Shown here in pieces: positions 38,055-42,530 of a stretch of 64,000 nt of DNA. This DNA comes from an uncultured Candidatus Saccharibacteria bacterium (GTDB lineage Bacteria > Patescibacteriota > WWE3 > 9FT-COMBO-53-11), in NCBI GenBank assembly GCA_964348395.1, contig CAYGCK010000001.1, positions 21,018-85,017 of the forward strand, in the 5' to 3' direction. The notes beneath the pieces were generated by a model. It saw only the letters and a program-made list of their open reading frames with translations. It made no database searches and had not been told where the DNA came from. The translations under genes were made by a program, and so were the position numbers. Numbering within the stretch: the stretch's first letter is position 1; every line of letters starts with the position of its first letter.

Positions 38055-38330
38055 TTACAGGATTCTAAACTTAATCTCCTCCACCGCGCGAGCGGGAAGC
38101 TGCTCGTTTATCACCTTCTTGAGTTCTCTTGCTTTCAAAAAAAGCTCTTGTGAGTGTGTGGGAGAGGGGGAAGCTAAGACGAGTCTGCCGTCTTTGAACG
38201 AGACCATTTCTGCCCACTTTGGAAGTATTCTTTTGCAGATGGCTTCTACCTTAAGAGCCAGAGCGACTCCTCTTATGGGGCTTCTGCGAAGCGACGTGTC
38301 CAGGGTATCTTTGAGCGGCTCGAATGTCAT
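38055..38330 (-). CDS. DUF721 (DciA-like) small protein
   Basis: W-x-E ... DGRLVLASPSPTHSQELFLKARELKKVIN fits the DUF721 pattern; 4-nt overlap with the preceding ATPase ORF. Confidence 0.45.
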   Translation of the reverse strand: MTFEPLKDTLDTSLRRSPIRGVALALKVEAICKRILPKWAEMVSFKDGRLVLASPSPTHSQELFLKARELKKVINEQLPARAVEEIKFRIL

Positions 38331-40357
38331 TTTTTAGGGCTTTCCTCGGGAGGAGTCGGAGGAGCTGGTGGTTTTGGCGGTTTTGGTTCCCCTCTTTCCT
38401 CCGTCGGTAACCCCCGCTCTTGTGCCTCTTGCTCGAGTTTCTCTTTGATAGCCAGGATTTCCTTGGGTGAAGAGGTTGCTAAGGGATGTTCGTCTGCTGA
38501 GGCGACGACCTGCATGGCGACGTGGTTTGGGCCGGCGAAGAAAAGACCTTCCCCGACGTTGGCTGACAAAAGGAGATGTTTCTCCCCTTCTGATAAGTAG
38601 AAGACCTTGGCTATCTCGTCTATCGCCGCAGGGTGCTGCTTTAGAAGAATTTGAATCGAGGAGTTTGTGACTATCGCCTTACCGTAATCCGAGCGCAAGA
38701 AATCGGCGACGTCTTGGGTGATGGTTGTTAAGCCCAGGTAATACTTGCGAGCGCGTTTGGCAATTGAGTACATAAAGGTCGCAGAGTCGGGGTGTTGCAT
38801 CAGATACCAAGCCTCGTCCACGATCAAAATTCTCTTTTTTAGTTCTCGCCGGATTCTATTCCAAATAAAGTCCAAAATTATATACATCGCGACCGGCCTA
38901 ACCTTCTCCTCCAGGTCTCGGGTGGAGAAAACGGTAAAGGTGTTCTTGATATCCACCGTTGACGGTTGGTCGAAAATACCCGCCAAGGATCCGGTGACAT
39001 ACTGCTCCAGCCGGTCGGCCAGGGGCTTACCTTCCTCTGATGCCTTTAGAACCTCGTAAAGGTCGCTCATTACAGGAGCGGGGTTGCTGTGAGTCGCAGG
39101 ATCCTGGGTAATCCCTTTCTTTGCGTAGGTTTCCAAGAGCGCTCGGTCCAGCAACGCGTCTTCCGAGGGGGAGAGGCTTCCCATCACAATCTTGAAAAGC
39201 GTGTGAAGCGAGAGGATTTTAAGGGCGAGTTCGTTCGCCCCCTCCTCGTAGGTTCCGGACAAGTCAAAAGGATTTATCTTGGCCGGGGAGGTTGGCGAGA
39301 AGGTGATGAAGTCTCCCCCAATGGCGCCGGCCAACTGCTCGTACTCTTTCTCAGGGTCGATTACCATGATTTCCGTCCCAAACATCAAGGAGCGCACCGC
39401 CTCGAGCTTAACCATATAGGATTTGCCGGCCCCGGACTTGGCAAAGACGACCGAGTTGGCGTTCTCGAGCGAGAACCGGTCGAAGATTATGAGGGAGCCG
39501 TTGTGCTCGTTAATACCGTAAAGAATTCCTTCGTTTGCGGTAAGCTCCGAGGAGGTTAGAGGAAAGGTGGTCGCAAGAGAGGTCGTGTCCATGTTTCGCA
39601 TTATCTTGATTTTGTCTTGACAGGTCGGGATGGTCGACTGGAAGGCCTCCTCCATACGAAGCGTCGTGTGCTTGGAGAGAAGAAGAAGCGAACCCAAGGT
39701 TGACTCAACTTTTTTGGTCACCGCTTCCAATTCTTCCAAGGAATCAGCGGCCACTGTTATGTAGAAGGAGAATTGGAAGAAGCGTTCGGTCCCTTTGACA
39801 AGCTGCTCTTGGAGGGTTTTCGCGTCCTCCAAGGCGGCCTCGACCGCCGGATCCACAACCCGTCCCGTCTTTTCCGACTCCTTTATGGTAGCCTCAAGCT
39901 CGGCTATTTTTCTCCTAAGATCGCTCAAAACCCCTCGGGACTCAACCGGGTAATAGAACATGGAGATGGTTAGGGTATGCGGGAAATTGATGAGTGGGGA
40001 GAGCCAGTTTGCTCCGACAAATCTGGGGTAGCCGGAGACGAATATGGTGCGCACAAATGTCTCTCCGATTTTAAGGTGGTTGAAGTCGACGTCCAAGGAC
40101 GGGGGCGCAATAATATCTTGAACCGTAACCTGGCCGGCGGCTATGGTTTGAGCCAACTCGTCCATGCTTCGGACTCCCACCCCGCCGGTGGGCTGCACGG
40201 CCGGCGTTGGGGAAGCCGGAGGCAAGGACGGGGACTGGGGCGCTGCTGGCGGCGGGGTCTGGGGCGGGACCGCGGCTCCTCCCGCTGCAACTTGAGGAGC
40301 GGGCGGCGCTCCTTCGGGCATTTGGTTTTGTGGGTTTTGTGGTGTTTGAAACTCCAC
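38327..40357 (-). CDS. VirB4/TrbE/CagE-family type IV secretion ATPase, C-terminal ATPase part
   Basis: Walker A VVFAKSGAGKSYMV and Walker B RILIVDEAWYLM. GTG start 2 nt after the upstream stop, with GGAGG 9 nt upstream. About 60-aa Pro/Ala/Gln-rich N-terminal linker. Confidence 0.75.
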   Translation of the reverse strand: MEFQTPQNPQNQMPEGAPPAPQVAAGGAAVPPQTPPPAAPQSPSLPPASPTPAVQPTGGVGVRSMDELAQTIAAGQVTVQDIIAPPSLDVDFNHLKIGETFVRTIFVSGYPRFVGANWLSPLINFPHTLTISMFYYPVESRGVLSDLRRKIAELEATIKESEKTGRVVDPAVEAALEDAKTLQEQLVKGTERFFQFSFYITVAADSLEELEAVTKKVESTLGSLLLLSKHTTLRMEEAFQSTIPTCQDKIKIMRNMDTTSLATTFPLTSSELTANEGILYGINEHNGSLIIFDRFSLENANSVVFAKSGAGKSYMVKLEAVRSLMFGTEIMVIDPEKEYEQLAGAIGGDFITFSPTSPAKINPFDLSGTYEEGANELALKILSLHTLFKIVMGSLSPSEDALLDRALLETYAKKGITQDPATHSNPAPVMSDLYEVLKASEEGKPLADRLEQYVTGSLAGIFDQPSTVDIKNTFTVFSTRDLEEKVRPVAMYIILDFIWNRIRRELKKRILIVDEAWYLMQHPDSATFMYSIAKRARKYYLGLTTITQDVADFLRSDYGKAIVTNSSIQILLKQHPAAIDEIAKVFYLSEGEKHLLLSANVGEGLFFAGPNHVAMQVVASADEHPLATSSPKEILAIKEKLEQEAQERGLPTEERGEPKPPKPPAPPTPPEESPKK

Positions 40358-40359
40358 GA

Positions 40360-41076
40360 CTATTGGCCTCCTTCGACCGCCGGTTGAACAAACGTAGAGG
40401 TGTAGTTCCCGGCTCCTCCTGCAATATGTTGCACCCTCGCCTGCTCTGGATTATATATCTCGTAGAAAAGTTCGATCAGCTCTGGAGTTGTGAGTTGACG
40501 CGCCTTGATCCCTAAACGCTCCAGCTGTTTTGTGACGTGGTCTCGCTTGGGTTCAAGATCGGTTTTTGCCTGTTCTATGACCTGGGATTTATTGACCCGC
40601 GGCGCTTTGGGTTTTCGGCCAAACAGGAAATCCAAAATTCCCGGTTTTGGCAACGTCACCGCTCCGTAGTAGGGTATGGCGATATAGAACCTCTTGTCCA
40701 AGACTTCACCCTTTTGAACCAAAGACACGATGAACTCCTTGTAGGAGTCTATCCTTTCTCTGAGGTATGGGTTGGCTTGGGAAGCGGTGCCTTGGGCTTG
40801 CTCGTCGACCCACCGCAGGTAGTTTGATATATCAAGCTTTCGCGAGCGAATGACTATCTGTAAAGGGAAAGACAGTGAGTTTAGCATAGAGGAGTAGGCC
40901 GCGATCATCGAATCCTGCTCTTTTTCCGAAAGAAGATCGAAGTTGACAGAGGTCGCCTCCAAGACCAGGGCAGCTCCCCCGTTTTTAAGGATTACCAAAT
41001 CCTCGTGTATGTCGAGGATGTCGAGGTGTTCTTGGGTCGAGGCTTGTTTTGGTGTTTGCGGTTTTCCTAAGGCCAT
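40360..41076 (-). CDS. VirB4 N-terminal-domain-like protein (split from the ATPase ORF)
   Basis: GAALVLEATSVNFDLLSEKEQDSMIAAYSSMLNSLSFPLQIVIRS resembles the N-terminal CagE/TrbE/VirB4 region. TAATG overlap with the upstream gene. Confidence 0.5.
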   Translation of the reverse strand: MALGKPQTPKQASTQEHLDILDIHEDLVILKNGGAALVLEATSVNFDLLSEKEQDSMIAAYSSMLNSLSFPLQIVIRSRKLDISNYLRWVDEQAQGTASQANPYLRERIDSYKEFIVSLVQKGEVLDKRFYIAIPYYGAVTLPKPGILDFLFGRKPKAPRVNKSQVIEQAKTDLEPKRDHVTKQLERLGIKARQLTTPELIELFYEIYNPEQARVQHIAGGAGNYTSTFVQPAVEGGQ

Positions 41077-42530
41077 TATCCTTTGGGTTTGATCTCCAAC
41101 TCCTCTACTTTCTCTCCTGTAAGCTCAAGTTTTATTGTATCAAAGGGTTGGGGAGCCTTCGGTATCTCTAAAGTGTAAGTTCCATTGGGCAAGGAGGCGG
41201 TGGCGAACTTCCCAAGCTCGTTGGTTCGCGTCGCTCGAACCACATTTCCTTTGGCGTCTTTTATTACGACGAGGGTCTGGGACAACACCCCGCCTCCTGA
41301 GTCGTGTACGACTCCCTCTATGGCGTTTGCCTGCTCCCCAGTTTTGGGCGCAGGTTTTTTGTCCACTTTGGGGGCAACCTTTTTTACCGTCGGCAAGGGA
41401 GACGGCGGAGGAGGTGGCGGCGGAGCTGAGGGCTCCTCAACCTTCTCCTCCTTAGCCGGTTCGGGTTTTGGTTGGGGTGGGGGCGGTGGAGGAGCTTTGC
41501 CCTCCTCTTTTATGGTGACCTCCTCGGGAGGTGGAAGCGGTATCTCCTTGGGGGGTGGGGTGGGTGGAGGCTCGGGTTTTGCAGGCGGCGCCTCGGGCGC
41601 CGGCGGAGCCGGCTCGGGCTCCTGTGCTACTGGTTGGATAGGCGTGGGGGGGAGCTGCGGAGCCCCTGGGAGTTCGGGCTCAAGAATTCGTTCCCTCGCC
41701 GGGGCATAGACCGCCTCTCCCGATATAGCAATCGGGGTTAGACGCCTACCGACCCTGACGTTTTTTCGGGTTGTGAAGTAGCTTGCCGCCTCTCCGCGCT
41801 GGACCTTGTAGACCTTCTCTGCTGCCCAGTTTATCGGCGAGGCCAAGGACGGTCTTTTCTGGATTTTCTGTACCTCGATAAAGCGAAGCTCGGGCAAAGT
41901 GGGCGCCGGCGGTGCGGGCTTCTCCTCTGGGAGGAGGGGGGCTTCGGGGGGTTTGACGGCTTCTTTGGGAGGAGCTCCGGGGGTTGGAGGCGGTGTGGGT
42001 AAAGCAGGAGGTGCTTTGGGAGCGGTGATCTGCCGCGCCAAGACATTTATGGACTGAAGATACTGCTTCTCCTCCAGATCCAAAGGGCTAATTTCCCCTT
42101 CCTTCTCGCGGACCGCCTCAAGGTAGGTCTGCAACCGCCGCTCCGCTTCCTCTTTGGAGACTCCGGGCGCCGTCTCGGCGGCGATTTTGGGGATTTCCAG
42201 GGTTAAAAACTCGGGAGGTTCCTTGCTTTGCACCCAGACTCGGCGGGTCGGCGCGTAGACCGCTCTCAAAAACGACATCAACCATTGGTCGAGAGGTTGG
42301 TCTTGAACCGGAACAAAGGCCAGACCGACGCCGATAAGGAGAGCGCCTATTGAGAGAAGTAGCCGTATGGGAAGGAATAACCCAGAGGAAAAAATTGCGA
42401 AAGCTAGGACTCCGGCTATTGCCAGAAAGACAAACTGGCGGATAGTAAAGTCGCCTATGAGCTTGAACTGGACCCCAAAAACCTCCTGCGGGACCGGGTG
42501 TTGTTTTCGTGCTTGCGGTTCTTCGGGCAT
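41076..42530 (-). CDS. VirB3/PrgI-like 2-TM protein with long Pro-rich spacer and C-terminal beta-sandwich (CarboxypepD_reg/Cna-B-like) domain
   Basis: N-terminal FGVQFKLIGDFTIRQFVFLAIAGVLAFAIF plus a second TM; about 250 aa of PxxP repeats; C-terminal GVVHDSGGGVLSQTLVVIKDAKGNVVRATRTNELGKFATASLPNGTYTLEI. Confidence 0.4.
   Translation of the reverse strand: MPEEPQARKQHPVPQEVFGVQFKLIGDFTIRQFVFLAIAGVLAFAIFSSGLFLPIRLLLSIGALLIGVGLAFVPVQDQPLDQWLMSFLRAVYAPTRRVWVQSKEPPEFLTLEIPKIAAETAPGVSKEEAERRLQTYLEAVREKEGEISPLDLEEKQYLQSINVLARQITAPKAPPALPTPPPTPGAPPKEAVKPPEAPLLPEEKPAPPAPTLPELRFIEVQKIQKRPSLASPINWAAEKVYKVQRGEAASYFTTRKNVRVGRRLTPIAISGEAVYAPARERILEPELPGAPQLPPTPIQPVAQEPEPAPPAPEAPPAKPEPPPTPPPKEIPLPPPEEVTIKEEGKAPPPPPPQPKPEPAKEEKVEEPSAPPPPPPPSPLPTVKKVAPKVDKKPAPKTGEQANAIEGVVHDSGGGVLSQTLVVIKDAKGNVVRATRTNELGKFATASLPNGTYTLEIPKAPQPFDTIKLELTGEKVEELEIKPKG

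Follow-up and report, generated by a model that had tools for sequence, protein, structure and literature searches.

When the coding sequence of a VirB4-like protein runs into a stop codon and resumes 2 nt later in another frame, the question arises as to whether the break is real and, if so, how the protein is made. Such a locus lies in the 64,000-nt stretch of DNA from an uncultured Candidatus Saccharibacteria bacterium that was analysed here, hereafter the window. A first-pass annotation of this DNA had left four possibilities side by side, namely a naturally split and translationally coupled VirB4, a programmed frameshift, a pseudogene and an assembly indel. Comparative data speak for the first of these and against the other three: the locus very probably represents the standard two-gene VirB4, i.e. 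a TrsD-like protein plus an ATPase, of the chromosomal T4SS of Patescibacteria (CPR). The pair of TrsD and VirB4 is already known from Patescibacteria and from some Gram-positive plasmids and is hence ordinary.

The two reading frames (ORF1 and ORF2) and their neighbours are listed in Table 1. Their coordinates, the TAG, the 2-nt gap, the GTG in the other frame and the GGAGG 9 nt upstream all agree with the first-pass annotation, as do its estimates of a low-complexity Pro/Ala/Gln linker of about 60 aa (62 aa, including 18 P, 10 A, 8 Q and 6 G) and of a combined length of about 914 aa (238 + 676). The excess of this sum over the 750–800 aa of a typical VirB4 corresponds to the 62-aa leader and the Pro/Glu/Lys-rich tail of ORF2. 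The genes form a chain in the order prgI (virB3-like)–trsD–virB4–dciA, adjoining dnaA/dnaN, and are joined by a 1-nt overlap (the prgI stop TAA shares one nucleotide with the ORF1 ATG, giving TAATG), the 2-nt gap and a 4-nt overlap (ATGA), respectively. The prgI product combines a PrgI membrane domain (aa 12–98), a long stretch rich in Pro and, at the C-terminus, a CarboxypepD_reg beta-sandwich (aa 404–456). In the relatives L002–L008, dciA also lies 3′ of the ATPase gene; it is genomic context outside the secretion system. Elsewhere in the window, Shine-Dalgarno motifs were seen 5′ of 11 of 37 other ORFs, a count that is unreliable as the ORF starts were set mechanically.

Table 1. Features of the two-gene VirB4 locus and its neighbours (positions within the window).
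Feature	Position	Strand	Remarks
PrgI (VirB3-like) gene, first of chain	41076..42530	(-)	Pfam PrgI E 9e-10; CarboxypepD_reg E 1e-8
ORF1, TrsD-like gene	40360..41076	(-)	238 aa; separate protein homologous to VirB4 residues 1 to ~215
GGAGG, Shine-Dalgarno-like motif	40367..40371	(-)	9 nt 5′ of the ORF2 GTG, within the last ORF1 codons
ORF1 stop TAG	40362-40360	(-)	
Spacer TC between ORF1 stop and ORF2 GTG	40358..40359	(-)	2 nt
ORF2, VirB4-type ATPase gene	38327..40357	(-)	676 aa; opened by GTG 40357-40355
Pro/Ala/Gln-rich low-complexity leader	40172..40357	(-)	ORF2 aa 1-62
Walker A SGAGKS	39419-39436	(-)	ORF2 aa 308-313
Walker B ILIVDEAW	38807-38830	(-)	ORF2 aa 510-517
Pro/Glu/Lys-rich C-terminal tail of ORF2	38330-38500	(-)	~57 aa
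dciA	38055..38330	(-)	91 aa; Pfam DciA E 4e-8

That ORF2 encodes a VirB4 ATPase, as had been proposed, is borne out by its match to NCBIfam NF045971 (conju_CD1110), a VirB4-like ATPase family (391.4 bits at a cutoff of 325, E 8e-117), with ORF2 residues 71–614 covering positions 179–733 of the 752 in the model. Pfam P-loop_TraG (95.6 bits, cutoff 25.8, E 3e-27) and the C-terminal domain of VirB4 in PDB entry 4ag5 (E 1e-50 against the ATPase domain) match as well, and both nucleotide-binding motifs, Walker A and Walker B, are intact. ORF2 is, however, no full-length single-chain VirB4, which would include the extreme N-terminal ~200 residues: its residues 70–609 align with residues 215–772 of the 796-residue PrgJ (25% identity, E 2e-41), and the first ~214 residues of PrgJ have no counterpart in it. 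Going by the alignments, the absent segment corresponds to ORF1. ORF2 thus supplies the ATPase domain together with the latter part of the N-terminal region of VirB4, and the chain is broken within that N-terminal region, at about residue 215 of PrgJ, rather than at the boundary of the ATPase domain.

The resemblance of ORF1 to the N-terminal domain of VirB4, likewise proposed at first pass, is visible only via family HMMs, in-silico fusion and the predicted fold. Among VirB4 models, its weak HMM matches are confined to the N-terminal parts (VirB4_plasma positions 105–233 of 894, E 6e-10; CD1110 positions 123–171 of 752; TraC-F positions 122–172 of 800). The NCBIfam model of TrsD/TraD, NF041427, scores 38.4 bits (E 1e-9) without reaching its cutoff of 200, and the matches to VirB4 and TrsD models alike fall far below the curated cutoffs. 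A local Pfam scan of ORF1 returned a sub-threshold TraC_F_IV match only. Its assignment to Pfam PF26593 (‘TraC-like’) rests on precomputed matches of its homologues, not on scoring ORF1 itself; these matches are present on all 120 listed homologues, including one that is 92% identical (P0001). When a family of 57 ORF1 sequences was compared with Staphylococcus aureus TrsD by hhalign, the two aligned over 179 columns at ~25% identity (probability 94%, E 1.2e-7), whereas the same family gave no alignment with the single PrgJ sequence (probability 0.8%). A profile of ORF1 relatives found chance-level matches only among PDB sequences.

The AF2 model of ORF1 (pLDDT 77) carries the comparison further. 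In a Foldseek search of the PDB, its 14 top-ranking matches are without exception TrwK/VirB4 chains, and those below them are noise; the best extends over 218 columns (E 4.9e-4, probability 1.0) at ~15% identity to TrwK, with a TM-score of 0.47 on the query length and an rmsd of ~7 Å, the matched TrwK residues not being given in the output. ORF1 is homologous to TrsD for the greater part of its length (by hhalign and by PF26593 on its homologues) and to the N-terminal portion of VirB4 (by HMM positions, fusion alignments and fold), and it is a small stand-alone gene between a VirB3/PrgI-like gene and a VirB4-type ATPase gene. By sequence comparison, it is a distant relative of TrsD that lies outside the narrow staphylococcal/enterococcal subfamily of NF041427.

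Scored with VirB4 HMMs, an in-silico fusion of ORF1 and ORF2 without the leader aligned through residues 165–790 with positions 124–733 of CD1110 (408 bits, compared with 391 for ORF2 alone), through residues 163–780 with positions 122–741 of TraC-F, through residues 175–775 with positions 153–727 of VirB4_CagE and through residues 165–422 with positions 243–476 of SCO6880, in each case as a single continuous HMM stretch crossing the junction. As judged from these alignments, ORF1 and ORF2 are collinear with a single-chain VirB4.

The break is also found well beyond the window. A protein search returned 2258 relatives of ORF1, the best 120 of which are all stand-alone proteins of 224–316 aa. 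Such relatives are encoded in 362 species-level genomes; 80 loci were fetched, and in 77 of these 80 the stop of the small gene is followed directly by the ATPase ORF. Universally fused orthologues, named at first pass as an indication of a sequencing error, are the opposite of what was found, the orthologues being almost universally split. The fetched loci come from CPR genomes, among them WWE3, Woykebacteria and Curtissbacteria, and share this layout; the frame relations 0, +1 and +2 all occur, by lineage, 11 loci being in frame with an intervening stop. Counted from the stop of the small gene, the ATPase start lies between −14 and +40 nt in the 77 loci, with most offsets between −4 and +7 nt and +1, −1, +2 and −4 being the commonest. 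The probable start is ATG in 74 of the 77, a GGAG, GAGG or AGGA motif occupies the same site in 53 and is absent from 24, and the leader measures 12–99 aa (median 30), its length varying between lineages. In two loci (L051 and L055), trsD has retained prgI but lacks a downstream ATPase gene, the latter lying elsewhere; the L055 TrsD homologue had no match in a local Pfam scan. A trsD without an ATPase gene downstream has likewise been reported in Gracilibacteria (PMC12102498). As these cases show, a TrsD gene need not accompany virB4, and its product might have a role beyond completing VirB4.

The closest relative (L086), an independent assembly from another metagenome, encodes an ORF1 that is 92% identical. 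Its junction reads TAA-TCTT-ATG where the window has TAG-TC-GTG, a 2-nt indel that changes the frame relation and comes with an ATG start. An internal ATG at codon 13 of ORF2 in the window is ACG in this relative, which is why the GTG at 40357 is taken as the homologous start of ORF2. Automatic gene calling in the relative set the ATPase start 64 codons too far downstream and predicted, across the Pro-rich leader, a spurious antisense gene. Between the two genomes, dN/dS is 0.03 for ORF1, 0.04 for the core of ORF2 and 0.26 for its leader, with synonymous change being saturated in this comparison. Purifying selection acts on both ORFs, which are conserved genes in their own right.

These observations bear directly on the three readings in which the break is an artefact, a signal or a lesion. 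A sequencing or assembly error of 1–2 nt, creating both the stop and the frame change in what is truly a single 914-aa ORF, would leave two ORFs abutting within 2 nt in different frames, just as observed. Yet the stop recurs in independent assemblies from many projects (77 of 80 genomes, three frame relations, 11 times in frame), the closest relative has a stop, a spacer size and a start codon of its own, the 120 best of the 2258 ORF1 relatives are all short, and no fused close relative was seen among either the 80 loci or these 120 proteins; this reading is exceedingly improbable. Decay of a formerly intact VirB4 after a disruptive mutation has only the interruption itself in its favour and is hardly credible given the low dN/dS of both halves (0.03–0.04, at saturated synonymous change), the intact Walker motifs, the persistence of the arrangement across many CPR lineages and Firmicutes plasmids, and the reported essentiality of a TrsD homologue and virB4 in a cultivated Saccharibacterium (PMC12102498). 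Programmed frameshifting or stop-codon readthrough, yielding a fused full-length VirB4, gains some appeal from the fact that the ORF2 frame extends without a stop for 93 nt into the end of ORF1, where a −1 shift would fuse the two. This stretch contains no slippery heptamer of the type X XXY YYZ, however, and the frame relation is unconserved, differing even from that of the 92% identical relative, which speaks against a frameshift signal since such a signal would require a conserved relation. Most lineages moreover have a canonical start codon and a Shine-Dalgarno-like motif at the junction, many loci carry a stop that closes the ORF2 frame a few nucleotides 5′ of the start, and trsD lies apart from the ATPase gene in some lineages. 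A fused product is accordingly very improbable.

The naturally split VirB4 has close counterparts. In Patescibacteria, TrsD is the most abundant T4SS component, with 2,272 homologues of which 1,664 adjoin virB4, and its homology to the N-terminal part of VirB4 was described as remote; the T4SS often lies near dnaA or the replication origin, and a TrsD homologue and virB4 are essential in the cultivated Saccharibacterium Ca. Southlakia epibionticum (PMC12102498, Quinonero-Coronel et al., Microb Genom 2025). The locus in the window resembles these chromosomal systems in family, host group, the PrgI/VirB3-like gene upstream, virB4 downstream and the place near dnaA/dnaN, and nothing essential differs. 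Compared with Patescibacteria T4SS generally, its clade has a longer Pro/Ala/Gln leader (62–70 aa, and 99 aa in L001, against the median of 30), a GTG start and a dciA chained downstream. The prototype used in the same study is a staphylococcal conjugative plasmid of the pGO1 type. On S. aureus p0915, which is of this type, a trsD of 227 aa stands directly 5′ of a 670-aa VirB4-type ATPase gene and is preceded by a gene for a small membrane protein, comparable to prgI in the window; there, however, the pair is plasmid-borne, conjugative and accompanied by a relaxase, with a gap of 20 nt instead of 2 nt, whereas the pair in the window is chromosomal and beside the origin. Bacillus anthracis pXO1 shares the order PrgI then TrsD together with an ATPase gene, and a Pontibacillus plasmid has the same gene order as the window.

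Single-chain forms provide the contrast. PrgJ, of the Gram-positive CD1110 family, also has a PrgI gene upstream but is one polypeptide of 796 aa, the first ~215 residues of which are a separate protein in the window. TrwK/VirB4 of R388 (cryo-EM structures 7o41, 8rtb and 8rtd), the sole PDB fold match of the ORF1 model and a weak match of ORF2 through its ATPase domain (E 1e-4), is, unlike the two-chain form, a single chain of 823 aa and belongs to a Gram-negative system that includes an outer-membrane complex. In R388, it is through its N-terminal region that one VirB4 protomer is connected to another and that VirB4 touches VirB3 and VirB8 at the membrane (PMC12857230). A search of the literature for an explicitly described ‘split VirB4’ returned nothing relevant, a paper on Helicobacter pylori ComB using ‘split’ in another sense, and Guglielmini et al. 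(2014) do not use the word TrsD in their main text.

How the two chains might be made and joined can be sketched from the locus. The first ~215 residues of VirB4 would be produced as a separate 238-aa TrsD/TraD (‘TraC-like’) protein, and the next gene would provide the remainder, i.e. the second half of the N-terminal region and the Walker A/B ATPase domain. The near-contiguous stop and start, with a ribosome binding site inside the upstream gene, have the geometry of a coupled pair and suggest that trsD and the ATPase gene are translationally coupled: a ribosome ending trsD may re-initiate at the GTG, aided by the GGAGG, which would yield roughly equal amounts of both chains. TrsD and the ATPase would then associate non-covalently and rebuild the N-terminal region of VirB4, with the loop in which the chain is interrupted presumably being marked by the disordered TrsD tail and the flexible ATPase leader.

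Two further ideas concern what the separate protein does. TrsD could be an independent accessory subunit of VirB4 N-terminal descent, with a role of its own, for instance as an adaptor linking PrgI/VirB3 to other components, and not a mere completion of the ATPase. The loci in which prgI, but not the ATPase gene, accompanies it would agree with this, as would a haloarchaeal plasmid on which the TrsD-like region forms the N-terminus of a larger, 544-aa protein encoded 5′ of the ATPase gene. Against it, the ATPase lacks exactly the TrsD-like segment, joining the two in silico gives a chain collinear with a one-piece VirB4, the genes as a rule adjoin with tight junctions (77 of 80 loci), and separate loci do not stop two chains from assembling; we therefore regard an accessory role as distinctly unlikely. 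It is also conceivable, if rather doubtful, that the fission is functional instead of neutral, with free TrsD being loaded at another stoichiometry or time than the ATPase, or remaining with PrgI/VirB3 as a docking platform at the membrane that exchanges ATPase subunits. Such a function would fit the retention of trsD beside prgI after the ATPase gene had moved away in some CPR lineages, as well as the evolution of flexible Pro-rich leaders (12–99 aa) at the broken end.

For annotation, the two-gene reading means that TrsD-like (VirB4 N-terminal module) is the fitting name for the small gene, that the junction should be left without ‘repair’ and that the ATPase start belongs at GTG 40357. The exact complementarity of TrsD and the shortened ATPase to single-chain VirB4 modestly sharpens the published description of a remote homology with no function assigned. 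Were the fission functional, it would offer a natural two-piece system in which to dissect how the N-terminal region of VirB4 organises the inner-membrane complex in a T4SS that is essential. The locus itself adds one more case of the T4SS near the origin, on which cultivated Saccharibacteria depend for epibiotic growth.

The TrsD-like ORF1 and the ATPase gene ORF2 meet at a tight junction with an internal ribosome-binding site. What the first-pass annotation had described there, namely the ORF coordinates, the TAG, the 2-nt gap, the GTG in another frame and the GGAGG at 9 nt, was in each case confirmed on the window sequence, as was a low-complexity Pro/Ala/Gln linker of ~60 aa, which corresponds to the first 62 residues of ORF2 (also rich in Gly; hereafter the leader).

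Features of the split virB4 locus and its flanks
Feature	Position	Strand	Remarks
Hydrophobic protein, 413 aa	43167-44408	-	probably multi-pass membrane; flanks operon
Membrane protein, 148 aa	42663-43109	+	flanks operon
VirB3/PrgI-like gene	41076-42530	-	unusually large, 484 aa
ORF1 (trsD-like)	41076..40360	-	238 aa; stop TAG at 40362-40360
GGAGG	40371-40367	-	9 nt 5' of ORF2 GTG
Spacer TC, 2 nt	between ORF1 TAG and ORF2 GTG	-	
ORF2 (virB4)	40357..38327	-	676 aa; GTG start; frame differs from ORF1
dciA	38055-38330	-	replicative helicase-loading factor; ATGA overlap with virB4 end

Judged from its sequence, the product of ORF2 is a VirB4-type ATPase: it exceeds the cutoff of NCBIfam conju_CD1110 (391 bits; cutoff 325), matches Pfam P-loop_TraG and the structure of the VirB4 C-terminal domain (4ag5, E 1e-50), and has intact Walker A (SGAGKS) and Walker B (ILIVDEAW) motifs. 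VirB4 family models are covered only from around position 180 on, and residues 70–609 correspond to residues 215–772 of the enterococcal single-chain PrgJ (796 aa), so ORF2 lacks the ~215 residues with which a canonical VirB4 begins. Its C-terminal tail (38330-38500, minus strand; ~57 aa, Pro/Glu/Lys-rich, ending …GEPKPPKPPAPPTPPEESPKK) lies outside the region covered by these models.

ORF1 resembles the missing segment. Its matches to VirB4 models are weak and confined to N-terminal parts (VirB4_plasma, positions 105–233 of 894; CD1110, 123–171 of 752; TraC-F, 122–172 of 800), and it also matches the TrsD/TraD family; Staphylococcus aureus TrsD is recovered with a profile of the ORF1 family (57 sequences) at 94% probability (E 1.2e-7, 179 columns). 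The domain already has a Pfam family, PF26593 'TraC-like', and NCBIfam includes TrsD/TraD. For the AlphaFold2 model of ORF1 (pLDDT 77, pTM 0.66; disordered from residue 220 on, pLDDT <50), the 14 best PDB matches are all TrwK/VirB4 chains of plasmid R388 (best E 4.9e-4, probability 1.0, 218 columns), followed by unrelated proteins at probabilities of 0.3 or less.

When both proteins were joined in silico, leaving out the leader, alignments to VirB4 HMMs crossed the junction as a single stretch and scored above ORF2 alone: CD1110 (fusion residues 165–790, model positions 124–733; 408 versus 391 bits), TraC-F (163–780, 122–741; 185 versus 178), VirB4_CagE (175–775, 153–727; 141 versus 139) and SCO6880 (165–422, 243–476; 45 versus 30). 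At the sequence level, the two ORFs are complementary to each other and collinear with one VirB4. The chain break lies inside the VirB4 N-terminal region, not at the ATPase domain boundary.

The first-pass annotation had left the choice between a natural split, an assembly indel, a pseudogene and a programmed frameshift; comparative data support the first and reject the others. A relative of ORF1 is encoded in 362 species-level genomes, and the best 120 of its 2258 relatives in the protein collection are all stand-alone (224–316 aa). Among 80 loci fetched from species-level genomes, 77 have the stop of the small gene followed at once by an ATPase ORF, likely starting with ATG (74) or GTG (3) at −14 to +40 nt from the stop-codon end (most commonly +1, −1, +2 and −4); an SD-like motif is found at 53 of these 77 junctions. 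This conservation argues against an assembly error, as does the closest relative, L086, which comes from a separate metagenome (ORF1 92% identical): its junction reads TAA-TCTT-ATG instead of TAG-TC-GTG, a 2-nt spacer indel after which both ORFs are still intact but stand in another frame relation. A pseudogene is rejected by dN/dS values against L086 of 0.03 for ORF1 and 0.04 for the ATPase core (leader, 0.26). As for programmed frameshifting, no slippery heptamer occurs in the 93 nt of ORF1 where the ORF2 frame stays open, and the ATPase frame relative to the small gene is 0, +1 or +2 depending on the lineage, with 11 loci having a stop between genes in the same frame. Two genes are present, both of them conserved.

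The window GTG aligns with the L086 ATG, and an internal ATG (codon 13) is ACG in L086, which identifies the GTG at 40357 as the ORF2 start. In this stretch of L086 (1145-1339), the public gene call places the ATPase start at 1339, 64 codons after the homologous ATG at 1147, and reports a spurious antisense gene of 43 aa over the Pro-rich leader.

The locus forms a chain, prgI-like–trsD-like–virB4–dciA, in which the first two genes overlap by 1 nt (TAATG), the trsD-like gene and virB4 lie 2 nt apart, and virB4 and dciA overlap by 4 nt (ATGA). Adjoining dnaA, yidC, jag and dnaN place it next to the replication origin. The co-transcription of a replication gene, dciA, with secretion genes beside the origin is curious; dciA also lies 3′ of the ATPase gene in the relatives L002-L008. 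In the VirB3/PrgI-like protein, a PrgI membrane domain is followed by ~300 aa of low-complexity, Pro-rich sequence and, at the C-terminus, by a CarboxypepD_reg beta-sandwich that presumably lies outside the cell; a distant relative shares this architecture (L055:2877-3968). Neither flanking membrane protein has a Pfam or NCBIfam match; the larger could be a VirB6-like channel subunit.

The PrgI–TrsD-like–ATPase order is identical in Bacillus anthracis pXO1, while a Pontibacillus plasmid has an unannotated small ORF at the PrgI position and on S. aureus plasmid p0915 a membrane-protein gene lies ahead of trsD (227 aa), with an ATPase gene (670 aa) next. Unlike in the window, VirB4 is fused in pCF10-type plasmids. 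In a haloarchaeal plasmid of Halorientalis marina, the TrsD-like region is the N-terminus of a 544-aa protein (L083:4980-6614) encoded directly 5′ of a DUF87 ATPase gene, extending the split arrangement to archaeal conjugation-like loci. Several public MAGs (L013, L016, L019, L026, L027, L038, L051, L055, L062) carry this kind of locus, typical of CPR, under Gammaproteobacteria, Pseudomonadales or Nanoarchaeia labels, which looks like taxonomic mislabelling.

Termination–reinitiation coupling would lead to matched synthesis of the TrsD-like and ATPase chains, which probably come together and restore the VirB4 N-terminal region; the disordered ORF1 tail and the variable Pro-rich leader (12–99 aa in the 77 loci) would mark the interrupted loop. 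In R388, the VirB4 N-terminal region is embedded in the membrane, where it connects protomers with one another and touches VirB3 and VirB8 (PMC12857230). A minor alternative is an independent adaptor role of TrsD, in line with a published exception in Gracilibacteria and with two genomes labelled 'uncultured Pseudomonadales' (L051 and L055, the latter at L055:3989-4663), where prgI-trsD lacks a downstream ATPase gene (in L055, dnaN and dnaA follow on the opposite strand), so that an ATPase is either encoded at another place or missing.

TrsD has been described as a remote homologue of the N-terminal part of VirB4 and as the most abundant T4SS component of Patescibacteria; of the 2,272 homologues in this group, 1,664 are associated with virB4. 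These T4SS are often near dnaA, and in Ca. Southlakia epibionticum the homologue is essential (Quinonero-Coronel et al. 2025, PMC12102498). The split VirB4 of the window is a genuine and natural feature of a kind known before, and noticing it from sequence was a correct rediscovery of a published arrangement. Added here are explicit evidence for the exact complementarity of TrsD and the shortened ATPase, a junction-geometry map over 77 genomes and the right ATPase start codon for the window's clade.
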